Source: Candidatus Glassbacteria bacterium
Lineage (GTDB): Bacteria > Gemmatimonadota > Glassbacteria > GWA2-58-10
Assembly: GCA_016934095.1 (NCBI GenBank)
Contig: JAFGTO010000244.1
Location: 1-12,398, forward strand
Reading direction: 5' to 3'
Length of the DNA: 12,398 bases
Shown here piece by piece: positions 1 through 11,851 of this stretch. The position numbers were made by a program, and so were the translations under genes. Positions within the stretch are counted from its first letter, which is position 1; each line of letters opens with the position of its first letter. The notes under the pieces are model-generated. The model searched no databases and was not told where the DNA came from. It was given only the letters and a program-made list of their open reading frames with translations.

Positions 1-2
1 AG

Positions 3-1916
3 TTCCGCAGCAACCGGAAGAACCTCGACCGGATGCTGTACAGCAAGGGAGCCGCCCTGATGGAGTCGGTGCTGCACGACGCTGAGAACGCAGTGCTTGC
101 AGAGCGCGAGATCTCGGAACAGCTCGCCTCCCGCCTGGCGGATAACGCCAGGTACGCCCTGATGCTGGCCGACCGGGGAGCGCAGGCCGGGCGGTCGCTG
201 GCAGCCGCGGCCGCGGAGAACGGGCTGGTCCGCCTGGAGGTGTACGGTCCGGACGGGGGACTGATCGCAACTAGCGACCCGCGCGGCTCACCCGGAATGC
301 TGCCCGCATCCCTGGATGGCCTGGCCGCCGGGGATGAGCCGCTTATCAGGCTGATCCAGGACCCGGCGGGATCCGGGAACGAGCTCCTGGCGGCCGCCGT
401 GCGGGGTGGGGACGGCCGGGCGGGAGTGGCCTATGCCCTGTCGGATGAGCTCTTCGCGCTCCAGCGCCGGCTGGGAATCGGCCTGATCCTCGACGACCTC
501 TCCGCAGTGGAGGGGGTGGCTTACGCCGTGCTCCAGGACACTCTGGGGATCATCGCGGCCTCGAGCGACGTGGTGGAAATCGGCAGTATCGGCAAGGACC
601 CGTTCTTCCCCCTGGCCGCCGGGGAGATCAAGGGGCGCCGCCTGGATTTCTTCGGCGAGGAGGTCTACGAGCTGGCCGCCCTGTTCCAGCTCGGCGGCGA
701 GAGTTTCGGTTACCTGAGGGTCGGGCTCTCGACTGAAGAAGTACGCTCGATTGCCGAGCTGGACCGCAAGAGGTTCGGTTTCGGCATGGCGGTGCTGGCC
801 GTGCTGGCCGCGGTGGCTGTGCTGCTCTACTTTTTCCGCCTCCGCCACCTGCACCTGGAGCAGGAGCACTCGCGCATCAAGAGCTTCTCGGACAGCGTGC
901 TCGAATCCATGGGCGATGCGGTGATTGTCGCCGACCGGGACGGCAGGGTCCTGCTGGTCAACCGTGTCGCCGAAAAGCTATGCGGCACCGACCGGCCGCC
1001 CCTGCCGGGCCGCATGCTCTCGGAGGTGGCTCCCGGCCTGGCGGAAAAGCTCGGAAGCCTGGACACAGATGAGCCGCTGGTCTTGGAGACCGAGCTGCCC
1101 CGGCCCGGCTCTGCAGGACCGCTGCCCGTGCTGGCCACCGCCTCACCCTTATTGGTTGCCGGCAGCCGCTACACTACGGTTATCCTGCGCGACCTGACCG
1201 ACCGCAAGCGCGCCGAGGAGCTGGCCCTGCGCAACGAGAAGTACCAGGTCATGGCCGAGGTCTCGGCCTCGGTGGCCCACGAGATCCGCAACCCGCTCAA
1301 CGCGATCGGGATGAATGTCCAGCGCCTCAAGATGGAGTTCACCCCGCAGGAGGGGAGCCGGGGAGAATACGAGGAGTTCATCGAGATAATCCGCCGCGAG
1401 GTGGAGAGGATCAACGGGATAGTCGAACAGTACCTGACCCTGGCCCGTTTCCCCGGGCCGAAAAAAGAAATGGCGAGGATCGACAGGCTGCTGGCCGATA
1501 CCCTGCAGTTTTTCGCTGCCGAGCTCGCCGGGCGGCGGATCGCGGTGAAAGCGGATATCGCGCCCGCCGGGCCGTTCCCTTTCGATCCCGGGCAGTTGAG
1601 ACAGGTTTTCACCAACCTGATCAAGAACGCCGCCGAAGCCATTGAAAGCGAGGGGACCCTGCTGGTGGCCGGACGCCCGCTGCCGGGGTACTACCAGGTC
1701 TCCGTGCAGGACAGCGGCCCCGGGATCCCCGCAAGCGTGCGGGACAAGGTTTTCGAGCCGTTTTTCAGCACCAAGCAAAGTGGGCTGGGTCTTGGATTGG
1801 CCATTGTCCAGCGCATTGTCGCCGAGCACGGGGGTAATATATCCCTGGAAAGCAGCGGCCGGCCGGGGACCACTTTCGTGGTCACCCTGCCTGCAGACAA
1901 GGAGGATAAAACATGA
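3..1916 (+). CDS. Sensor histidine kinase (periplasmic sensor domain, TM, PAS, HisKA, HATPase_c); 5' end probably truncated by the window edge
   Basis: Frame is open from base 3 and the first in-window Met is at 33. There is no RBS before 33 and no N-terminal TM, so the true start is probably upstream. TM segment FGFGMAVLAVLAAVAVLLYFF. PAS-like SVLESMGDAVIVADRDGRVLLVN. H-box SASVAHEIRNPLNAIGMNVQRL. N-box LIKNAAEAI. G-boxes QDSGPGIP and GLGLGLAIVQRIVAEHGG. Strong GC3 codon bias. Confidence 0.85.
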   Translation, partial: FRSNRKNLDRMLYSKGAALMESVLHDAENAVLAEREISEQLASRLADNARYALMLADRGAQAGRSLAAAAAENGLVRLEVYGPDGGLIATSDPRGSPGMLPASLDGLAAGDEPLIRLIQDPAGSGNELLAAAVRGGDGRAGVAYALSDELFALQRRLGIGLILDDLSAVEGVAYAVLQDTLGIIAASSDVVEIGSIGKDPFFPLAAGEIKGRRLDFFGEEVYELAALFQLGGESFGYLRVGLSTEEVRSIAELDRKRFGFGMAVLAVLAAVAVLLYFFRLRHLHLEQEHSRIKSFSDSVLESMGDAVIVADRDGRVLLVNRVAEKLCGTDRPPLPGRMLSEVAPGLAEKLGSLDTDEPLVLETELPRPGSAGPLPVLATASPLLVAGSRYTTVILRDLTDRKRAEELALRNEKYQVMAEVSASVAHEIRNPLNAIGMNVQRLKMEFTPQEGSRGEYEEFIEIIRREVERINGIVEQYLTLARFPGPKKEMARIDRLLADTLQFFAAELAGRRIAVKADIAPAGPFPFDPGQLRQVFTNLIKNAAEAIESEGTLLVAGRPLPGYYQVSVQDSGPGIPASVRDKVFEPFFSTKQSGLGLGLAIVQRIVAEHGGNISLESSGRPGTTFVVTLPADKEDKT

Positions 1917-3268
1917 AAAGCCACCGTATCCTGGTGGTGGAGGACGAGGAGAACCAGCGCCGCACCCTGGCCGGTTTCCTGAGGAAAAAGGGTTACCGGA
2001 CCGAAGAGGCCCCTTCCGGGGAGGCCGCCCTGGAGCTTGTCCGCAAGCACCTTTACGACCTGGTCCTGACCGACCAGAAAATGGGGGGCATCGGCGGCCT
2101 GGAGCTGCTCAGGGAGGTCAAGGCCGCCAACCCGGAAATCGAGGTGGTCCTGCTGACCGCCTTCGGAGACCTCCGCTCCGCGGTCCAGGCGGTCCGCCAG
2201 GGCGCTTTCGACTACCTGGCCAAGCCGGTGGACCTGGAAGAGCTGGAGCTGACCCTCGAGCGGGCCCTGGAGCGCAGGCAGCTCGTGGTGGAAAACCGGA
2301 TGCTTCGCGAGTCGCTCGGCGAGCGGCAGAGCTTCGAGGAGATCATCTCCGTCAGCGATGCCATGGAGTCTGTGCTCAACATGGCTTCCCGGGTGGCCCG
2401 GGTCGACTCTCCCGTGCTGATCACCGGGGAGTCCGGCACCGGCAAGGAGATGGTGGCCAAGACGATCCACCAGGCCAGCGTGCGCAGGGACCAGCCTTTC
2501 GTGGCGGTAAACTGCGCCGCCCTGAACCAGAACCTCATCGAGAGCGAGCTGTTCGGCCACGAGAAAGGGGCCTTCACCGGCGCCATCCGTCAGCGCCAAG
2601 GCAAACTCGAGTCCGCCGACAGGGGGACCCTGTTCCTCGATGAGCTCGGGGAGATCAGCCCCGAGATCCAGGTTAAACTGCTGCGCTTTCTCCAAGAGCA
2701 CTCGTTCGAGCGGGTCGGCTCGGACCAGGTGCAGCAGGCGGACGTGCGCCTGATCGCCGCTACCAACCGCGACCTGGAGGCAGCCATCCGTCAGGGCGAT
2801 TTCCGCGAAGATTTCTACTACCGGATCAACGTGGTCAATATCCAGATCCCGCCCCTGCGCTCGCGCAGGGAGGACATCCGCCCGCTGATTGATTTCTTCC
2901 TGCAGAGAAACCGCGAGCGTCTCGGGCCGAAGACCTTCTCCAGGCAGGCGCTCGACTCCCTGCTGCGCTACGATTTCCCGGGAAACATCCGGGAGCTGCA
3001 GAACGTGGTCGAGCGGGCCATGGTGCTGGCCAGGAACGAGGTGGTCGACCTGGCCGACCTGCCCCCCTCGGTCACTGCCAGACAGGATAACTTTCCCGGT
3101 GTCCGCGAAATCGGCGGCTCGCTCACCGAGGAGATAGAGAACCTGGAAAGGCGCATGATTACCGCCGCCCTGGAATCCTGCGACAAGGTTCAGGTGCGGG
3201 CCGCGGAAAAGCTGGGAATCACGGAAAGGAACCTGCGCTACAAGATGAAAAAGCTGGGAATCAAATAA
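1913..3268 (+). CDS. Sigma-54-dependent response regulator, NtrC/AtoC/ZraR family (REC + AAA+ sigma-54 activator + Fis-type HTH)
   Basis: Start ATG 1913 overlaps the kinase stop TGA 1914-1916 (ATGA coupling), with a GGAGGA RBS at 1901-1906. REC domain with phospho-acceptor LVLTDQKMGG. Walker A GESGTGKE. GAFTGA motif ESELFGHEKGAFTGA. Walker B/arginine-finger region. C-terminal HTH AAEKLGITERNLRYKMKKLGI. Confidence 0.9.
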   Translation: MKSHRILVVEDEENQRRTLAGFLRKKGYRTEEAPSGEAALELVRKHLYDLVLTDQKMGGIGGLELLREVKAANPEIEVVLLTAFGDLRSAVQAVRQGAFDYLAKPVDLEELELTLERALERRQLVVENRMLRESLGERQSFEEIISVSDAMESVLNMASRVARVDSPVLITGESGTGKEMVAKTIHQASVRRDQPFVAVNCAALNQNLIESELFGHEKGAFTGAIRQRQGKLESADRGTLFLDELGEISPEIQVKLLRFLQEHSFERVGSDQVQQADVRLIAATNRDLEAAIRQGDFREDFYYRINVVNIQIPPLRSRREDIRPLIDFFLQRNRERLGPKTFSRQALDSLLRYDFPGNIRELQNVVERAMVLARNEVVDLADLPPSVTARQDNFPGVREIGGSLTEEIENLERRMITAALESCDKVQVRAAEKLGITERNLRYKMKKLGIK

Positions 3269-3300
3269 GCTTTCGATAAAAAGGATGGAAATTTCGTGTT

Positions 3301-3340
3301 TTCGACCAATTGGTCGAACAACTCTCGACAAAAATGTCGA
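3301..3340. promoter_or_regulatory. Tandem palindromes, candidate enhancer (UAS) sites for the adjacent NtrC-type activator
   Basis: Perfect 18-bp palindrome TTCGACCAATTGGTCGAA at 3301-3318. Second dyad TCGACA-AAAA-TGTCGA at 3325-3340. Centres lie about 160 and about 140 bp upstream of the predicted sigma-54 start site. An AT-rich tract between them and the promoter (3341-3440) is typical of a bending region. Confidence 0.45.
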
Positions 3341-3446
3341 TAATATAGATTTATTTATTTTCCAGGGAAATCCCGCCGGTATTTTTTCGCGTATAACCTG
3401 TTGAAATTCAAATGATTAAGGGTTTCAAATATATTTCAGACAATTT

Positions 3447-3461
3447 TGGCACCGTTCTTGA
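3447..3461 (+). promoter_or_regulatory. Sigma-54 (-24/-12) promoter candidate
   Basis: TGGCACC-GTTC-TTGA matches TGGCACG-N4-TTGCW. The GG and GA(C) elements have the exact 10-nt spacing, with only the -12 C replaced by A. It lies about 75 bp upstream of ATG 3537, directly downstream of a sigma-54 activator gene. Confidence 0.55.
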
Positions 3462-3536
3462 TTAAGGTAAGGGTGCGCGCATCGATTTTATCTTTCGCAG
3501 TATCAGCTTACCTTTAAAGAGCAGAGGAGGTGCCGG

Positions 3537-4388
3537 ATGAAAACCCTGAAAATTCTGCCGGTAATCACTTTTATCGGCGCATTGATGACTTTGAATCCCG
3601 GACTGTACGCCCAGGATGCCGATGACGCAGCCGCGGACGATGGGGCCGCTGTAGCGACGCCCCTGGGCGGAGCCTACCGCCACGGCATGAGGGATGTCGG
3701 GTTCCGCGGCTTTACCGACGAGGACGGCAACGGGCTCAACGACTATCTAGAGGACTCGGACGGCGACGGGGTGGTCAACGCCCACGACCCGGACAGCGAC
3801 CTTTATCGCGGCGAGCCGGGTACGGCTCTGGGACGCGGCCTGGGCTTCGTGGATGAGGACGGCAACGGGCTCAACGACTATCTAGAGGACTCGGACGGCG
3901 ACGGGGTGATCAACGCCCACGACTCCGACAGCCCGCTCTACCGCGACCCCCGCGCCAGGGGCGCTTTCGGGCGCGGCCTGAGCTTTGTGGATGAGGACGG
4001 CAACGGGATCAACGACCGTCTCGAGGACTCGGACGGCGACGGGGTGATCAACGCCCACGACCCGGACAGCCCGCTCTACCGCGACCCCAGCGCCAGGGGC
4101 GTTTTCGGGCGCAGGCTCCGCTTCATCGATGAGAACGGCGACGGTGTCAGCGACTGCCTCGAGGACTCGGACGGCGACGGGGTGATCAACTCCCTCGACC
4201 CCGACAGCCCGCTGTATCGCGGCAGCGCGGCCGGGAACACGGTCAGGGGCGCACGCCTCGGCTCGGCCGGCAAGACTGTCATGCAGCGCGGGTCGGCTTT
4301 CAGCGGACAGTCGCGCTCTACCGGAAGGGCAAGAGTGAGAACGCCCGGGAGCTGCACAACCGCTCCCGCCGGCAGCGGCAGCAATTAA
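3537..4388 (+). CDS. Secreted acidic repeat protein with tandem DxDxDG (thrombospondin type 3 / EF-hand-like) calcium-binding loops
   Basis: RBS AGAGGAGG at 3524-3530. Signal peptide MKTLKILPVITFIGALMTLNPGLYA|QD. About 3.7 copies of a 45-46 aa unit EDGNGLNDYLEDSDGDGVINAHDPDSPLYRDP.ARGAFGRGLSFVD. Each unit carries two back-to-back 12-residue loops, DEDGNGLNDYLE and DSDGDGVINAHD, fitting DxDxDGxxDxxE/D. Confidence 0.8.
   Translation: MKTLKILPVITFIGALMTLNPGLYAQDADDAAADDGAAVATPLGGAYRHGMRDVGFRGFTDEDGNGLNDYLEDSDGDGVVNAHDPDSDLYRGEPGTALGRGLGFVDEDGNGLNDYLEDSDGDGVINAHDSDSPLYRDPRARGAFGRGLSFVDEDGNGINDRLEDSDGDGVINAHDPDSPLYRDPSARGVFGRRLRFIDENGDGVSDCLEDSDGDGVINSLDPDSPLYRGSAAGNTVRGARLGSAGKTVMQRGSAFSGQSRSTGRARVRTPGSCTTAPAGSGSN
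3720..4217 (+). repeat. In-frame tandem DNA repeat, 135-138 bp unit, about 3.7 copies, inside CDS 3537-4388
   Basis: Units begin at 3720, 3855, 3993 and 4131 with GAGGACGGCAACGGG...GAGGACTCGGACGGCGACGGGGTG(A/G)TCAACGCCCACGAC. Copies 1-3 are nearly identical at the nucleotide level and copy 4 is more diverged. Confidence 0.85.
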
Positions 4389-4405
4389 CGATTCTGCAGT
4401 TCTGC

Positions 4406-4437
4406 AGCCCGGGAGCCTCGTACCCGAGGCTCCCGGG
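4406..4437 (+). terminator. GC-rich hairpin (14-bp stem, 4-nt loop) between the two repeat-protein genes; possible intra-operon attenuator or partial terminator
   Basis: GCCCGGGAGCCTCG-TACC-CGAGGCTCCCGGGC is a perfect inverted repeat 18 nt after stop 4388, preceded by the direct repeat TTCTGCAG x2. It is followed by an A-rich tract (AGATAAAACAAACAAAA) rather than a U-tract, so it is not a canonical intrinsic terminator. Confidence 0.35.
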
Positions 4438-4464
4438 CAGATAAAACAAACAAAATCACGGATC

Positions 4465-5136
4465 ATGGGTAAAAGAATTACATACGGCGCGGCAGTGGCG
4501 ATTTTTCTTTTTTGCGGCACTCTTTCCGCACAGCAGGAAAAGGCCCGGCCGGAGACTCGGAAATCAACGGTCCAGCCCGGCGGGTCCGCAGCCCAAAAAG
4601 CAGCCGACAATAAAGAACCCCAGACGCCTGTCGCCGTATTCGGCTTCCAGGACCGGGACCGCGACGGCAAGAACGACCTGTTCCGGGACGCCGACGGCGA
4701 CGGGATCAACGATATCACCAAGAAACCCTACCCTCACAAGTTCAAGTTCGCAGATGAGGACGAGGATAAAATCAACGACTTGTTCGTGGATGCCGACGGC
4801 GACGGGGTGAACGACCTTGAAGTCAAGTTTATCGATGCCGACAGCGACGGGATCAACGACAATATCATCGATGTCGACAAGAACCATATCAACGACATCA
4901 CCGGCCTGCGCTATACCAGCAAGTCCCTGCGGGGGTACAAGTACGGTTTTATCAAGGAGGAGCGCCTGCTGATGATGCGCGGCTTCATCGATGAAGACGG
5001 GGACGGGATCGCGGATGCACCCCGGGGCATGATGCTCAGAAAAGGCATGCGCGACCGGATTATCGACCGGGACGGCGACGGGATCGACGACAGGAGGGAG
5101 ATGATGCGCAAATTCAGACCAGGACCCAGGAGATAG
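4465..5136 (+). CDS. Secreted paralogous DxDGDG-loop repeat protein (degenerate Ca-binding loop repeats)
   Basis: Signal peptide MGKRITYGAAVAIFLFCGTLSA|QQ. Loops DRDRDGKND, DADGDGINDI, DEDEDKINDL, DADGDGVNDL, DADSDGINDN, DEDGDGIADA, DRDGDGIDDR. Codon composition is more AT-rich than the first paralog. Ends TAG 5134-5136, 3 nt before the next start. Confidence 0.75.
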   Translation: MGKRITYGAAVAIFLFCGTLSAQQEKARPETRKSTVQPGGSAAQKAADNKEPQTPVAVFGFQDRDRDGKNDLFRDADGDGINDITKKPYPHKFKFADEDEDKINDLFVDADGDGVNDLEVKFIDADSDGINDNIIDVDKNHINDITGLRYTSKSLRGYKYGFIKEERLLMMRGFIDEDGDGIADAPRGMMLRKGMRDRIIDRDGDGIDDRREMMRKFRPGPRR

Positions 5137-5139
5137 GCA

Positions 5140-6405
5140 ATGAAAAAATTCGGCTTGCTAGGCCTGATACCGCTTTTCCTCTGGGCCGGGATGCTCCGGG
5201 CCCAGAAAGAAGTCAGCGTGGGGACCCACATGCTGGCTGACGACAATATCTTCCGCAACCACACAGGACAGGGCGACTTTGTCGCTGTACCTTACGCCGA
5301 CCTAGGCTACCAGTTCAGTCCCGGCCAGGACACGGAGACACTGGACCTGTTCTACCTAGGCTATTCAGGGCAGTTTTTCCTTTTCCGCGAGCTGAGCCGG
5401 AGGGACTTCTCCGTGCACGGCTTCTCCGCACACTACAACCACCTCTGGCCCGAGTCGCGCAACCTGCTCGCTGTCGGCGGCAAGGTGGAAACCAGGCTCA
5501 ACCCGGAAGACTACAAGTATTTCAACTATACCTCGGGCGGATTTTACCTGAACTACAAGAGATACCTCAGGGAAGACCTGATGCTGCTGGCCGGGTACAA
5601 CCTTACCGGCAAGAACTTTTCCGAATTCCCGGAGTTCAATTACCTGGAAAACATCTTTTCCATCCAGACCAGCCTGTTCCTGCAATCCAGGACCACCCTG
5701 CGGTTTTCCGCCAATTACTACCACAAGAACTACCTCAACAGTATCTCTACTCTGGACTCGGTTTTTGTCGAGCCGCCCCCGGTTTCCGGGCCCATGCCCG
5801 GCATGGGCTATGGATACGGCCGCGGGATGTTCCTCAGGAACCTGTTCCCGGAGGATGTTGGCGAAGGTTTCTACTCGTACCGCATGCGTGCCGATGAATT
5901 CCCCAGCACCGACCAGTTCAAGCTGGGTTTCACAGTGGCCCAGGGCCTGGCCGAGGGCACGGGGATCACCGCGGGCTACACCGCCCGGCTCAACCCCCGC
6001 AACCGCAACCGCTACCTGTCCAACCTCGGCGAATCGGTGCTGAACAATGAAGAGCTTTTCGACGACCACTACAGCTACCTGGGCCACGAGGGCACTTTGC
6101 AGCTCAAGCAAATGCTGCCTGCAGAGTCGATACTGACCCTGATGTTCACCGTGCGCAGCCGCCGTTTCAGCGACCGGCCAGCCCTGGACCTCGAGGGCTA
6201 CCCGCTGCCCTCCGGAGAGGACCGGCGGGACAGGGCTGTGCTTTTCGAGGCCGAGTTCACCAAGCGGCTCAGGCCCGGCATTTCCTGGATCACCGACAAC
6301 CTCGAGCTCTCGGTCGGGTTCGGCCTGGGCAGCAACAGCTCGAACGACCAGTATTACGATTTCAACGACAAATATTTCATTTTCGCCCTGGAAAAAGCCT
6401 TCTAG
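5140..6405 (+). CDS. Putative outer-membrane beta-barrel protein (no heme motif)
   Basis: RBS AGGAGA at 5126-5131. Signal peptide MKKFGLLGLIPLFLWAGMLRA|QKE. High Tyr/Gly/Asn/Ser content with alternating aromatic/hydrophobic patterning typical of amphipathic beta-strands. C-terminus ...YFIFALEKAF ends in Phe as in Bam-dependent OMPs. Co-transcribed with the two repeat proteins. Confidence 0.7.
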   Translation: MKKFGLLGLIPLFLWAGMLRAQKEVSVGTHMLADDNIFRNHTGQGDFVAVPYADLGYQFSPGQDTETLDLFYLGYSGQFFLFRELSRRDFSVHGFSAHYNHLWPESRNLLAVGGKVETRLNPEDYKYFNYTSGGFYLNYKRYLREDLMLLAGYNLTGKNFSEFPEFNYLENIFSIQTSLFLQSRTTLRFSANYYHKNYLNSISTLDSVFVEPPPVSGPMPGMGYGYGRGMFLRNLFPEDVGEGFYSYRMRADEFPSTDQFKLGFTVAQGLAEGTGITAGYTARLNPRNRNRYLSNLGESVLNNEELFDDHYSYLGHEGTLQLKQMLPAESILTLMFTVRSRRFSDRPALDLEGYPLPSGEDRRDRAVLFEAEFTKRLRPGISWITDNLELSVGFGLGSNSSNDQYYDFNDKYFIFALEKAF

Positions 6406-6534
6406 CTCCGCCCTCTCCGCGACCTGGCGCAAGGGAATCCCGTGCCCCCTGCCTCATGCCGCTGCATTTTCTCCGCCCCTCACCATTTTCATGATACAGC
6501 GGACTCACTGTAGCCCGGATACGGTCAATAAGTC

Positions 6535-6563
6535 TTGATTTAATCAGGCGGATATGGTAGCAT
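6535..6563 (+). promoter_or_regulatory. Possible sigma-70-type promoter for the encapsulin operon
   Basis: TTGATT (6535-6540), a 17-bp spacer, then TAGCAT (6558-6563), in the AT-richer spacer about 100 bp upstream of the EncFtn start. Weak matches only. Confidence 0.3.
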
Positions 6564-6669
6564 TTAACAGAGCCGCAAAAATGACCTCCGGGCCCGCCCT
6601 CTCGAGCCCGGCGCCAAATACTTTCAGGCGAAGACATCCTTGAACCTGCCCATCAGAGAGGAGTTTTCC

Positions 6670-7038
6670 ATGAGCAGTACTTATCATGAACCATCCCAGG
6701 AGCTGCCTCCGGAAGTCCGCGATACCCATCGCGCACTGGCGAGCCTGATCGAAGAGCTGGAGGCTATCGACTGGTATAACCAGCGGGCCTCTCTCACCAC
6801 CGACCCGGAGCTCAAAGAGATTGTCCAGCACAACCGGGACGAGGAAATCGAACATGCGGCCATGGCCCTGGAATGGCTGCGCAGGAGGATCCCCAAATTC
6901 GACGAGGAACTGAAGACCTACCTGTTCTCTTCCGGCCCCATTACCGAAATAGAAGAAGCCCTGGCAAAAGAACCTGCTGAAAACGACGCGCCGGCCCCGG
7001 GCAGCCTGGGAATCGGCTCGCTGCGAAAGGAGAGCTGA
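6670..7038 (+). CDS. Encapsulated ferritin-like protein (EncFtn) with C-terminal encapsulin cargo-loading peptide
   Basis: RBS AGAGGAG at 6654-6660, 9 nt before ATG 6670. The track start at 6640 is a TTG with no RBS, so 6670 is preferred. EncFtn signature EELEAIDWYNQRA...DPELKEIVQHNRDEEIEHAAMALEWLRRR (metal-binding Glu/His residues). C-terminal tail ...PGSLGIGSLRKES matches the GSLxIGSLK-type encapsulin targeting peptide. The stop lies 2 nt before the shell gene. Confidence 0.85.
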   Translation: MSSTYHEPSQELPPEVRDTHRALASLIEELEAIDWYNQRASLTTDPELKEIVQHNRDEEIEHAAMALEWLRRRIPKFDEELKTYLFSSGPITEIEEALAKEPAENDAPAPGSLGIGSLRKES

Positions 7039-7040
7039 CG

Positions 7041-7841
7041 ATGAGCGACATTCTGCGACGTTCACTGGCTCCGCTGACGGAAGCCGCCTGGAAGGAAATC
7101 GACAGGACGGCCTCGAACATCCTCAAAGCAAGCCTCACCGGGCGCAAGCTGGTTGACTGCGACGGGCCCCACGGCCTGGAGCTGGGTGCGGTGAACCTGG
7201 GCCGCCTGGCAATCCCCGAGAAACATAAGAGGGCGGGTGTAAGCTGGGGCGTGCGCGAGGTGCTGCCGCTGGTGGAGTTACGGGTACCCTTCCAGCTCGA
7301 CCAGATGGAGCTGGACTCGATCTCCAGGGGCTCGAAGGATGTCGACCTGGGTCCGCTGGAAAAAGCCGCCAGGGCAGTGGTCGATTTCGAGGAATCCGCA
7401 ATCTACAAAGGCTTTCCGGAGGCCAGGGTCCAGGGCATACTCAAAGCCGCAAAACACGCCCCGCTCAAGATCCCCGCCGCACGCGAAGACTGCCCCAAGG
7501 CCGTGGCCGAGGGGATCAAGCTGCTGTCCGAGGCGGGAATCGAGGGGCCTTACGCGCTGGTCCTCTGCCTGGAGTGCTACCATGAGCTGATCGCCACCGC
7601 CAAGGGATACCCTACTTTCCGGGTGGCGGAGCGCCTGGTGGAAGGCGGGATATTCTACAGCAGCGCCCTCAAGGGCGGCGTGCTGCTGTCCGTGCGCGGC
7701 GGAGATTTCGAGCTGACCCTGGGCCAGGATATCTCCATCGGCTTCTCGGGCTGCACCGCGGACAAAGTGGAGCTCTATTTTGCCGAGTCTTTCACTTTCC
7801 GCGTGCTGGAGCCGCTGGCCGCTGTCGAGCTGAAACCCTGA
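7041..7841 (+). CDS. Family 1 encapsulin nanocompartment shell protein (HK97 fold; Linocin_M18 family)
   Basis: RBS AAAGGAGAG at 7026-7034. Sequence is collinear with the T. maritima encapsulin: LRRSLAPLTEAAWKEID, GRKLVDCDGPHG, WGVREVLPLVELRVPFQL..ELD..RG..DVDLGPLE, GIEGPYALV, RGGDFELTLGQDISIGF, ESFTFRVLEP. The 266-aa length is typical. Confidence 0.9.
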   Translation: MSDILRRSLAPLTEAAWKEIDRTASNILKASLTGRKLVDCDGPHGLELGAVNLGRLAIPEKHKRAGVSWGVREVLPLVELRVPFQLDQMELDSISRGSKDVDLGPLEKAARAVVDFEESAIYKGFPEARVQGILKAAKHAPLKIPAAREDCPKAVAEGIKLLSEAGIEGPYALVLCLECYHELIATAKGYPTFRVAERLVEGGIFYSSALKGGVLLSVRGGDFELTLGQDISIGFSGCTADKVELYFAESFTFRVLEPLAAVELKP

Positions 7842-7899
7842 CCCCGCGGTATAATCAGGGAACGGGCGCCGGACGGACTTGGACCGTTTGTTTACCCGA

Positions 7900-7935
7900 G
7901 GGGCACATTTATGCATGTGCCCCATTTTATTCTCC
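7900..7935 (+). terminator. Rho-independent terminator after the encapsulin operon
   Basis: GGGGCACAT-TTATGC-ATGTGCCCC (9-bp stem, 6-nt loop) followed by ATTTTATTCT, about 60 bp after stop 7841. Confidence 0.6.
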
Positions 7936-8004
7936 TGATTGCCGTAAGCTGCCTGACAGTACTGATGCAGAAACCGCTGATATCAGCCAGGGTGCCGGGG
8001 TAAA

Positions 8005-8080
8005 ATCGTGTTACTTTTTCTAAATATTAACGTTAAAAAATACCGGGATTATCTGTCATTCCAGCCGGTATAAATTCATC
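8005..8080 (+). promoter_or_regulatory. AT-rich putative promoter region for the cytochrome operon
   Basis: TTACTT (8011-8016) is spaced 17 bp from TAAAAA (8034-8039). A strong -10-like GGTATAAAT sits at 8067-8075 with a poor -35. No TGGCAC-type sigma-54 element was seen here. The exact promoter is unresolved. Confidence 0.25.
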
Positions 8081-8111
8081 CAATTAAATCTTACCTGATG
8101 AAAGGGTTTAT

Positions 8112-9473
8112 ATGCGATCAGCCCGTAAAGTCTTAGCTGTCGTTGTCATTGGCACGGTTGTGGCGGGAGCGGGCTTACTGGCCCAGGTCAAGGCAGGCGA
8201 CGCCGCCCATGGCACCAGGCAGTACGACCAGTATAAAAAACCCAAGTTCTGCGGTACTTCCTGCCATACCGACTTCTATCGCCAGTGGCGCCAGGAGATG
8301 CACTCCCAGGCCTATGTCCACCACTGGGACGAGATCGAGTATTTCAAGCTGGCCGTGCCCCACGCGGAAAAAGACCCGGCCGTGGCCGGGGTCAGGGATG
8401 GCTGTAATGGCTGCCATGCGCCGGTGTCTTTCCTGGCGGGCGACACCCCTCCGCCCAGGCCCGAGGAAAACAGCCGGGCCAACGAAGCTGTCACCTGCGA
8501 CCTGTGCCATACTATCACCGGTTTCGAGTCAGACACTCCCCACAACTTCAACTATTATTCCGAGCCGGGGAACGTGAAATACGGGCCCAGGGGCGGGGTA
8601 ACCTCTCCTGAGCACGTGATCGAGGTCAGCAAGTTCCTGCCTTCCGCAGAGTTCTGCGGCACCTGCCATAACGAGAAAAGCCCTTACGGGGTATGGGTCA
8701 AATCGACCCACCTCGAGTGGAAGGAAGGGCCTTACGCAGCCGAGGGAGTCCCCTGCCACGACTGCCACATGCCAAGGGCCGAGGGCAGGAGGGCCTCGAT
8801 GGGTAAGGCCTACCCGGACATCCGTCAGCACCTGTTCCACGGCGCTCACGACAACGGCAAGATCAGGGGCACGGTGGAGCTGCGCATCCACCCGGATATC
8901 GATGAGACCGAGCCGGGCGAAAAAGTGGTCTTTACCGTGGTGCTCTTCAACCAGAAAGCCGGCCACAAGTTCCCCACCGGCTCGGTGGAGGACCGGATTG
9001 TCTGGCTGCATGTCGAGGCCACCGATGCCCAGGGCAAGGTCTATCACCTGCCGGTGGACCCCAAGGGTTTCGAGGGGGAAGAGTATACGATCGCCCGGGA
9101 CGTCCTGGCCTACCAGGACATGGGCATAGCGCTGAACGACCCCGGCTTCCAGGGCGTGCAGCGGGATGGGGTCCCGGTGGGAGACCGTATTTTCCGCATG
9201 CCCTATTTCGACCCCCAGGGCCGGATGACGATCCAGCAGTGGAACACCAAGAGCCTGGGTGTAGACTACCGGATACCCCCCAGGGGTACCAGGGTGGAGA
9301 CTTTCTCCTTCAGCCTGCCGTTCGAGGTCGCCCCGGGCAGGATGACTGTCGAAGCCACGCTCAACTACAGCAAGCTGGTCAAACCGGTGGCAGAGCTGCT
9401 CGAGGTGCCGCCGGATGAAACTGAAACAGTTGTGGTCAACGAGCATTCTACCGTAATCAACGTATTCGACTGA
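8112..9473 (+). CDS. Multiheme c-type cytochrome (five heme-binding motifs) with a C-terminal heme-free, probably beta-sandwich, domain
   Basis: Signal or anchor peptide MRSARKVLAVVVIGTVVAGAGLLAQVKA. Heme motifs CGTSCH (CX3CH), CNGCH, CDLCH, CGTCH and CHDCHMP. The GVPCHDCHMPRAEG segment resembles the NrfA-family CxDCHMP heme, but the family's distal heme is missing. The last about 200 aa are Cys-free. Confidence 0.85.
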   Translation: MRSARKVLAVVVIGTVVAGAGLLAQVKAGDAAHGTRQYDQYKKPKFCGTSCHTDFYRQWRQEMHSQAYVHHWDEIEYFKLAVPHAEKDPAVAGVRDGCNGCHAPVSFLAGDTPPPRPEENSRANEAVTCDLCHTITGFESDTPHNFNYYSEPGNVKYGPRGGVTSPEHVIEVSKFLPSAEFCGTCHNEKSPYGVWVKSTHLEWKEGPYAAEGVPCHDCHMPRAEGRRASMGKAYPDIRQHLFHGAHDNGKIRGTVELRIHPDIDETEPGEKVVFTVVLFNQKAGHKFPTGSVEDRIVWLHVEATDAQGKVYHLPVDPKGFEGEEYTIARDVLAYQDMGIALNDPGFQGVQRDGVPVGDRIFRMPYFDPQGRMTIQQWNTKSLGVDYRIPPRGTRVETFSFSLPFEVAPGRMTVEATLNYSKLVKPVAELLEVPPDETETVVVNEHSTVINVFD

Positions 9474-9483
9474 AGAAGGAAAA

Positions 9484-10665
9484 ATGAAAAAAAAGACGTT
9501 TTACACCCTGGTCTTTTCCCTGGCGGCCGCCGGTCTGTGTTCCATCTTTACGGCCGAGTCCGCCTATGCTGTCCCGGCTTTCGCCAGGAAATACCGGCTG
9601 AGCTGCAAGACCTGCCACCAGCCGATCCCCAGGCTGAAACCTTATGGGGATGAATTCGCCGGCAACGGTTTCGTGCTCACCGACCAGGAAGCGCCCAGGT
9701 ATTTTGTCGAGACCGGGGACGACGAGCTCTCGCTGATCCGGGATTTCCCCATCGCCGTGCGCCTGGAAGGGTTCATCAACTACAACGACGTGGCGGGAAA
9801 AAGGTCGGACTTCAACACTCCATACCTGTTGAAGCTGCTCTCCGGCGGGGCCCTGACCAAAAACATCGCCTATTACTTCTATTTCTACATGGATGAGAGA
9901 GGAGAGGTGGCCGGTGTCGAGGACGCCTATGTCATGTTCAACAACCTGCTGGGAGTCGACCTGGATATCTACGCAGGCCAGTTCCAGGTCTCCGACCCCC
10001 TGTTCAAGCGGGAGCTGCGCCTGACCCTGGAGGACTACCAGGCCTACAAGTCCACTCCGGGCCGCTCGGGGATAAACCTGACCTATGACAGGGGTATCAT
10101 GGTAACTTACGGGTTGCCCAGCGGCACCGACCTGATTTTCGAGGTGGTCAACGGCAACGGCTTGAGCGAGGCGGACGAGGACAAGAACTTCGACTCCGAC
10201 AGGTACAAGAATTTCATGGGACGCATCTCCCAGGATGTCGGTAAATACCTGCGCCTGGGTGTGTTCGGCTACACCGGCCGGGAAAAGAGCGCCGGCCGGC
10301 TGAACCAGGCCTGGCTGGCCGGTCCCGACCTGACAGTGTCAATCAACGAAAAGTTCGAGCTGAACCTGCAGTATGTCGAGAGAAGGGACACCAACCCTTA
10401 TTTCCTCAGCTCCGGCTACCGGGACCTCAAGACCAGGGGCGCGCTCGGCGAGATGGTGATCGCCCCCCGGGGCAGCGACGGCAAGGTCTACCTGGTGGGG
10501 CTGTTCAACTGGACAGACTCGGACGACAATTCGGAGGATTTCAAGAGCCTGACCGGTCATCTCAGCTACCTGCTGCGCAGGAACATCCGTCTGGTCGGCG
10601 AGGTAACCCACAACTGGGCCAATGATACCAACCGCCTCGGCGTGGGTTTTGTCTCGGCGTTCTAG
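9484..10665 (+). CDS. cyc2: Cyc2-like fused monoheme cytochrome c-porin (outer membrane; candidate Fe(II) oxidase or extracellular electron conduit)
   Basis: RBS GAAGGAAAA, start 11 nt after the cytochrome stop. Signal peptide MKKKTFYTLVFSLAAAGLCSIFTAESAYA|VP. A single CKTCH heme motif lies within 15 residues of the mature N-terminus inside PAFARKYRLSCKTCHQP, which matches the conserved N-terminal cytochrome module of Cyc2. The remaining about 340 aa are rich in Tyr/Gly/Asn beta-strand patterning and end GVGFVSAF (terminal Phe), consistent with a porin barrel. The family assignment is from memory, not from a search. Confidence 0.6.
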   Translation: MKKKTFYTLVFSLAAAGLCSIFTAESAYAVPAFARKYRLSCKTCHQPIPRLKPYGDEFAGNGFVLTDQEAPRYFVETGDDELSLIRDFPIAVRLEGFINYNDVAGKRSDFNTPYLLKLLSGGALTKNIAYYFYFYMDERGEVAGVEDAYVMFNNLLGVDLDIYAGQFQVSDPLFKRELRLTLEDYQAYKSTPGRSGINLTYDRGIMVTYGLPSGTDLIFEVVNGNGLSEADEDKNFDSDRYKNFMGRISQDVGKYLRLGVFGYTGREKSAGRLNQAWLAGPDLTVSINEKFELNLQYVERRDTNPYFLSSGYRDLKTRGALGEMVIAPRGSDGKVYLVGLFNWTDSDDNSEDFKSLTGHLSYLLRRNIRLVGEVTHNWANDTNRLGVGFVSAF

Positions 10666-11546: not shown

Positions 11547-11851
11547 GCAGTCGCGGTCGAAGCGGGCACCAGGCTTAATTCGGGCTCATGTCCGGACCCG
11601 GACAGGCACGCCCTGAGAAAACTTTTTCATAAGACGGTAACCTTGCAGCCGGCAACAACGTTAAACGTTCGACAGTGTTCAAAATGACCTGTCTTGTTCC
11701 CTGCTTCAATGAGCATAAGACAGCCGTCCGGAAATAAATTACTGGTTTTTCCCGGCCTGCCAGCGGTATGCCGCCAGTCCCGCTTACCCCACAGGCAGGC
11801 CGCCTCCAACTGACAACGTGCATTACCGCACTTCCCGAGCTTGCAGACAAG

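Follow-up and report, generated by a model that had tools for sequence, protein, structure and literature searches.

A predicted sigma-54 enhancer and promoter region linking a two-component system to a secreted-protein operon in Candidatus Glassbacteria

At the glnAp2 promoter, NtrC oligomerises on an enhancer and activates transcription through DNA looping, and the enhancer consists of two dyads placed whole helical turns apart about 100-140 bp upstream. In this paper we describe a locus with a similar layout in a metagenome-assembled genome (MAG) of Candidatus Glassbacteria. The window that we analysed is the entire contig JAFGTO010000244.1, with a length of 12,398 nt. Its 268-bp spacer between the stop codon of an NtrC-family regulator gene (3268) and the ATG of the next gene, here called gene 1 (3537), contains two dyad-symmetric sites followed by a -24/-12 promoter match. 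We consider it probable, at roughly 85%, that this spacer constitutes a full control region for enhancer-dependent (sigma-54) transcription which works by the five-step mechanism set out below. The system resembles NtrC at glnAp2 in having a REC-AAA+-HTH regulator and two dyad sites upstream of a GG/-12 promoter. However, the NtrC site is TGCACC-N5-GGTGCA, whereas the motif found here is TCGAC-N6-GTCGA, and the targets are Asp-rich proteins and an outer-membrane barrel instead of nitrogen-assimilation genes.

Other described systems are also close but not identical. The best-scoring named families are those of AtoSC and ZraSR, with NCBIfam scores of 475 bits for AtoC, 421 for ZraR and 229 for AtoS. 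These scores remain under the curated cut-offs (714, 760 and 646 bits, respectively), as do those of ZraS (149 against 479) and of ntrC (419 bits for the regulator against 558.6), so the proteins are not AtoSC, ZraSR or NtrBC equivalogs. The structure of the AAA+ and DNA-binding domains of ZraR (1OJL) matches the regulator with E = 4.9e-88. ZraSR is furthermore similar in that a periplasm-sensing kinase and an activator control an adjacent gene for an envelope or periplasmic protein from a sigma-54 promoter. The targets in our locus are nevertheless unrelated to ato or zraP, and the published operators of AtoC and ZraR have sequences different from TCGAC-N6-GTCGA. The closest solved full-length homolog is Aquifex aeolicus NtrC1 (PDB 4L4U, 1NY5; E = 7.5e-103, residues 5-450), which shares the REC-AAA+-HTH composition but has unrelated DNA targets. 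An exact look-up of the regulator protein matched no record, and our literature searches found no paper on this two-component system or on the TCGAC-N6-GTCGA motif, which is also absent from the motifs of the Desulfovibrio sigma-54 regulome paper.

The two dyads stand at the upstream end of the spacer. The distal candidate enhancer, upstream activating sequence (UAS) site 1 (3301-3318; TTCGACCAATTGGTCGAA), reads TTCGAC-CAATTG-GTCGAA around the core TCGAC-N6-GTCGA. The proximal candidate, UAS site 2 (3325-3340; TCGACAAAAATGTCGA), reads TCGAC-AAAAAT-GTCGA. A preliminary description of this DNA had reported a perfect 18-bp palindrome and a second dyad here, and we confirm both in sequence and in coordinates. 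They belong to one motif class, TCGAC-N6-GTCGA, for which the 12.4-kb window gives two exact matches where 0.03 are expected; a count of two was reached in 0 of 200 shuffles. The symmetry of the six-base spacer that gives site 1 its 18-bp perfection is not conserved in relatives. With centres at 3309.5 and 3332.5 the dyads are 23 bp apart and lie 138.5 and 115.5 bp upstream of the promoter GG, within the range of about 60-200 bp for paired enhancer sites of -24/-12 promoters. We also looked at two one-mismatch versions of the dyad elsewhere in the window and rejected both as binding sites. The one at 1411 lies in coding sequence. The other (TCGACCGGGACGGCGA, 5063-5078) is located in gene 2, where it encodes a conserved DRDGDG stretch; it recurs at the same codons in L163, L164, L166, L167 and L168 and is a coding coincidence.

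The predicted sigma-54 promoter is found on the plus strand at 3447-3461 (TGGCACCGTTCTTGA; TGGCAC-CGTTC-TTGA), with GG at 3448-3449, TTG at 3458-3460 and an A at 3461. This last position is the -12 base, 76 nt before the ATG of gene 1. Both GG and the G of the GC element are present at the right spacing of 10 nt, and the only departure from the consensus is the replacement of C by A at -12, which agrees with the single substitution noted before. TGGCAC-N5-TTG occurs once in the window against 0.09 expected. For a quantitative measure we used a position weight matrix (PWM) trained on 177 published promoters from Table S2 of PMC12316311. The match at 3447-3461 reaches 18.8 bits, at the 82nd percentile of the promoters used for training, and the runner-up in the window has 9.9 bits. 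Among Markov-1 random windows of equal composition, just 1% attain 18.8 bits. The transcription start is predicted at about 3473, and from there the dyad centres would lie at about -163 and -140, in line with the enhancer distance of about 140-160 bp proposed earlier. Another one-mismatch -24/-12 match, at 8150-8164, was rejected as a chance occurrence; it falls within the signal-peptide codons of a cytochrome gene and is not among the top PWM matches.

The gene that ends directly before the spacer (1913-3268, plus strand) encodes an NtrC-family enhancer-binding response regulator, with REC, AAA+ and HTH_8 domains and the recognition helix ITERNLRYKMKK. It is complete. Pfam detects Sigma54_activat (5.9e-73), Response_reg (8e-29), AAA_lid and, as the C-terminal Fis-type HTH, HTH_8 (5.4e-12; residues 408-448). 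The translation contains the phospho-acceptor Asp54 within LVLTDQKM, the Walker A and B motifs GESGTGKE and LFLDE, and the GAFTGA loop of the sigma-54-interaction domain. The gene upstream of it (1-1916, plus strand) encodes a sensor histidine kinase, which according to Pfam combines a periplasmic domain and a single transmembrane segment with PAS, HisKA and HATPase. This kinase is truncated by the 5' end of the contig: about 40 N-terminal residues are absent and the frame is open to base 3. Its ortholog in L161 is 71% identical, and the alignment begins at residue 41 of that protein. Since the frame is open to the contig start and the orthologs are longer, the annotated ATG at 33 is not the true start. 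The roughly 40 extra N-terminal residues of the orthologs are probably the first transmembrane segment.

We searched for relatives of the locus by regulator-sequence scans and by look-ups of barrel homologs. Eight further loci share with the window the order kinase, regulator, spacer, gene 1, gene 2 and barrel, and their overall GC content, together with that of the window, ranges from 48 to 67%. In the alignment of these nine spacers the mean column identity is just 50%. Columns without any variation are those of the four half-sites TCGAC/GTCGA, of the promoter elements GGCA and TTG, of a GCGCA core box, of the ribosome-binding site and ATG, and of a few isolated bases, three in the A/T-rich centre and one within the leader. 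In the six added loci that contain the spacer, exact dyads are limited to two per locus, both in the spacer, and the sole PWM match of at least 12 bits within the spacer lies 115.5-118.5 and 137.5-140.5 bp downstream of the dyads; in five of the six it is also the best match of the whole locus. The geometry of dyads and promoter is tightly fixed in this close clade, at distances of about 116 and 139 bp. We restrict the distance claim to the close clade; the helical-phase regularity of dyad-promoter distances over all lineages was examined and is not claimed. Two relatives were usable for the dyads only: L001, the closest genome match (86% identity), stops within the regulator gene, and L081 stops 158 nt past it. 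Judging from these comparisons, every DNA element named in the preliminary description is under purifying selection in related loci.

More distant relatives were found in MAGs of Ignavibacteria and of several unclassified lineages. Their regulators are about 50% identical to that of the window, and the genes for the full-length kinase, the barrel and the Asp-rich proteins are clustered but differ in order and orientation. The dyads occur in pairs about 22 bp apart (21-24), often as one strong and one degenerate copy, and are located 58-120 bp upstream of sigma-54-type promoters equivalent to that of the window. These promoters face the barrel operon and also an operon that is divergent from the kinase and starts with an Asp-rich protein. 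The latter operon carries on, in L009, into homologs of the cytochrome (75% identity) and the porin-like gene of the window. As the dyads are found upstream of the targets in rearranged loci too, the motif tracks the target genes and not merely the 3' end of the regulator gene. We also compared motif densities. Exact dyads are found at 0.065/kb in a set of 38 loci, consisting of the window and loci picked by regulator similarity or synteny, versus 0.007/kb in 123 loci of paralogous activators (binomial p = 4e-9), and this despite the TCGAC pentamer being about 3-fold rarer in the 38-locus set. One locus, L024, has a different HTH and no dyad and was left out of the ortholog set. The consensus of 40 unique sites is at-TCGAC-nAaATg-GTCGA-a.

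One question is whether the adjacent regulator is the protein that binds the dyads. The sigma-54 promoter could be genuine while the dyads are bound by some other factor, either another enhancer-binding protein or a repressor, and the regulator acts elsewhere. The genomes of the group do encode further candidates. In L165, another Glassbacteria MAG, a gene for a PAS-AAA+-HTH_8 activator (2280-3602) directly follows the barrel gene, which means that there are several enhancer-binding proteins in these genomes. The activator of L066, a Candidatus Eiseniibacteriota chromosome, could be matched only from residue 120 onward (6001-6987) and has no REC match, yet it bears the same recognition helix (ISERNLRYKMKK). 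Against this explanation, the dyads co-occur with regulator orthologs and target genes over several lineages and gene orders and are about 9-fold rarer at loci of paralogous activators. All syntenic regulators share one unvarying recognition helix, [IL][TS]ERNLRYKMKK, which differs in paralogs, so that it is constant exactly where the dyad motif is conserved. The standard layout of an enhancer is moreover just such a tandem dyad, 60-140 bp ahead of a -24/-12 promoter. We therefore think it unlikely that another factor binds the dyads in place of this regulator. The proposal that the kinase and the activator control the downstream secreted-protein operon gains support from this comparative evidence, in which the elements are conserved and travel with the target genes. 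Two side observations concern the same activators. The L165 locus has a 16-bit sigma-54 PWM match at 3822, about 220 bp past its PAS-AAA+-HTH_8 gene. The L066 locus contains a single exact TCGAC-N6-GTCGA, at 11685, and its DNA specificity may be shared with an activator that is regulated differently.

A further possibility is that the palindromes are mainly RNA hairpins which terminate or stabilise the kinase-regulator transcript, and not protein-binding DNA. Folding of the RNA of 3260-3365 gives two hairpins (-21.4 kcal/mol, z = -2.5), and in the window a U-rich stretch follows the second one. But the stems have just 5-7 bp, the U-rich tail is missing in relatives, and a terminator scan gave nothing between the regulator gene and gene 1. 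No variation is seen in the half-site pairs, and pairing at the variable positions does not exceed that of shuffles, which shows that the constraint is on the sequence and not on RNA pairing. In Ignavibacteria the dyads do not follow a gene but stand ahead of operons or between two divergently oriented genes, and their weaker copies break the pairing. Taken together this makes a role mainly as RNA hairpins highly improbable. A search of Rfam found no family in 3200-3600.

Several points weigh against a sigma-54 control region and deserve discussion. The -12 base of the window, A, is carried by just 4 of the 177 reference promoters, while 159 have C. Most of these references are RegPrecise sites from Desulfovibrionales. 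Near-duplicate contigs are present in our locus sets, and the raw counts are somewhat inflated by them. Finally, the scan gave no terminator-like site ahead of gene 1, which leaves room for a contribution of read-through to expression. A corresponding alternative is that a sigma-70 promoter, or else read-through from the regulator gene, accounts for most of the transcription of gene 1, and that the -24/-12 match is non-functional without the -12 C. The only sigma-70-like candidate, TTCAAA-17-TATATT, can be found at 3407-3435, but its hexamers are conserved in no relative. GGCA and TTG are invariant in 9/9 loci. The PWM score reaches 18.8 bits in spite of the -12 A.

The -12 base itself argues in the same direction. 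All nine close loci have A or T here and none has C, which makes the deviation a conserved trait of the regulon and not a weakness of the promoter prediction. The substitution counted by the preliminary description is thus real, but it should not be read as a defect. Among 20 unique dyad-associated promoters from all lineages, the base is C in 8, T in 7, A in 4 and G in 1, compared to 159, 14, 4 and 0 in the 177 references. The C is clearly depleted (8/20 versus 159/177; Fisher p = 1e-6), and TTG is invariant in 20/20. The -12 element helps to silence the closed complex, and a relaxed -12 may change basal activity. Such promoters are not without precedent: the -12 element reads TTGT in E. coli pspA and pspG, and TTGA or TTGT in several sites compiled for Desulfovibrionales (PMC12316311 S2). 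Since the promoters of pspA and pspG are functional, the -12 C is dispensable. The difference is that a non-C base is a conserved property of the whole regulon in our case. Two indirect pointers to an rpoN gene in this genome are the intact GAFTGA loop of the activator and the listing of full-length RpoN for cultured Ignavibacteria and Gemmatimonadota (PMC12316311 supplements). We regard expression chiefly from a sigma-70 promoter or by read-through as very unlikely, and sigma-54-dependent transcription of gene 1 as the better explanation.

Between the dyads and the promoter lies DNA which might assist looping. The spacer was described as AT-rich, and with about 40% GC against 62-69% in the flanks this is clearly the case. 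In its centre we find a semi-conserved A/T-rich box at 3393-3419 (ATAACCTGTTGAAATTCAAATGATTAA), which stands out as an island of conservation and is a candidate architectural site of the IHF or HU type. The IHF consensus WATCAANNNNTTR is matched with one mismatch at 3394-3406 on the minus strand and at 3406-3418 on the plus strand, out of seven such matches in the window against 3.3 expected. This is reminiscent of nifH and Pu-type promoters, in which IHF acts between enhancer and promoter, because a semi-conserved A/T-rich element lies midway and the spacing is fixed in the close clade. However, the IHF consensus is well matched in the window only and is poorly kept in relatives, which instead retain the pattern GTAAC-N17-(G/A)TTAC. 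The bending tract proposed earlier is thus supported in part, by the semi-conserved box with its one-mismatch IHF match. Given that the relatives keep the other pattern better than the IHF consensus, bending at this box is plausible but unproven.

Our data show that each DNA element is there, is statistically significant and is conserved, which domains make up the regulator, and that motif, promoter, regulator and target genes occur together across lineages. From these elements we infer the following sequence of events, beginning with a signal sensed by the kinase. The kinase would phosphorylate Asp54 of the regulator. Regulator dimers would then bind both dyads through HTH_8, two helical turns apart, and assemble an AAA+ ring. 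The A/T-rich DNA, possibly bent at 3393-3419, would loop this ring onto the sigma-54 RNA polymerase waiting in a closed complex at 3447-3461, and ATP hydrolysis through the GAFTGA loops would open the promoter. Transcription would start near 3473 and proceed through at least the genes of two Asp-rich repeat proteins and the 18-strand barrel (3537-6405). This is a textbook mechanism, and our result in this respect confirms existing understanding. Two features of the locus are minor curiosities, namely the conserved non-C base at -12 and a conserved box at the predicted start.

This second feature is a box at the predicted +1 to +10 (3473-3482, plus strand; GTGCGCGCAT), which consists of alternating purines and pyrimidines with the palindromic core TGCGCGCA and lies exactly 11 nt past the -12 base. 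Among the first 160 loci, GTGCGCGCAT is found in L082 and L083 only, at the same position. In 9/9 close spacers its GCGCA core is invariant and situated 11-13 nt past the -12 base, and they also conserve one more G. The box may serve as an operator, as start-site context or as DNA that responds to supercoiling. A subclade of Ignavibacteria (L011, L012, L013, L017, L018, L020 and L085) has another conserved GC-rich palindrome, GGACGTCC, located about 20-30 nt downstream of the kinase-divergent minus-strand sigma-54 promoter near 3835, and this may be an analogue of the box in the window. The spacer ends with the ribosome-binding site GGAGG (3526-3530, plus strand), 6 nt before the ATG at 3537 and conserved in the alignment.

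The downstream genes on the plus strand have no match to a Pfam or NCBIfam family, but syntenic homologs of all three exist in related loci. Translation of gene 1 (3537-4388) predicts an acidic, secreted protein that has a signal peptide and, in tandem, 3.7 repeats of 46 residues rich in DxDGDG. At the DNA level the repeat extends over 3720-4221, as 3.7 copies of a 138-bp unit with 86% identity, and each unit encodes DEDGNG…DSDGDG, motifs which look like calcium-binding sites. Gene 2 (4465-5136) encodes a second secreted Asp-rich repeat protein, according to its translation and synteny. For gene 3 (5140-6405) the AlphaFold2 model (pLDDT 80) shows an outer-membrane beta-barrel with 18 strands, and the Foldseek matches in the PDB (E about 1e-9, TM 0.42-0.48) suggest a generic fold of the OprD/Occ/AlgE-like type. 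By synteny the barrel is a conserved member of the cluster. The scan for terminator-like sites gave none on the plus strand between 3000 and 7900, so the transcript probably spans at least genes 1-3. A strong terminator-like hairpin follows at 7900-7931 (GGGGCACAT-TTATGC-ATGTGCCCC, then ATTTTATT), directly after an encapsulin gene. As this is the first plus-strand site of its kind past the sigma-54 promoter, the transcript might reach as far as there. The gaps at 6405-6640 and 7841-8112 contain neither a dyad nor a sigma-54 site.

One may ask whether all these loci form a regulon that has not been recognised before. It would extend over Glassbacteria, Ignavibacteria and others, with a periplasm-sensing kinase and its activator driving an extracellular module from variant sigma-54 promoters that keep the TTG and have lost the -12 C, and with the GC box at +1 to +10 adding a second input in Glassbacteria. 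We find this broad proposal doubtful at present. The extracellular module would consist of Asp-rich repeat proteins, which probably bind Ca2+ or other metals, and of an 18-strand channel, to which many loci add a multihaem cytochrome and a porin-like partner. The second input through the Glassbacteria box might consist in a repressor or in a response to supercoiling. Apart from this broad proposal, our results offer a concrete and testable regulatory model, with the paired motif, the promoters and the targets specified, for a two-component system of uncultured Glassbacteria, Ignavibacteria and other lineages that was so far uncharacterised. The paired TCGAC-N6-GTCGA can be used for tracing the full regulon in MAGs, since the targets have no family in the searched libraries and are often found beside multihaem cytochromes. 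Sigma-54 biology furthermore gains a natural collection of promoters that systematically lack the -12 C.

The remaining part of the window holds genes that accompany the operon. Between the barrel and cytochrome genes, at 6640-7841, there are genes for an encapsulated-ferritin cargo protein (EncFtn) and a family-1 encapsulin shell protein. The two genes seem to have been inserted into the cluster, because the cytochrome follows the barrel more directly in L083, L161 and L168. At 8112-10665 follow a multihaem c-type cytochrome, which has a weak NCBIfam match to ExtKL, and a porin-like protein without a family. The cytochrome is 75% identical to its homologs in L083 and in the Ignavibacteriales locus L009, whereas the regulator of L009 is only about 50% identical to that of the window. 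Such a difference points to strong constraint on the cytochrome or to lateral transfer. More multihaem cytochromes are encoded in neighbouring loci, and L163 contains Rieske and cytochrome b genes. A neighbourhood so rich in cytochromes hints at extracellular electron transfer.

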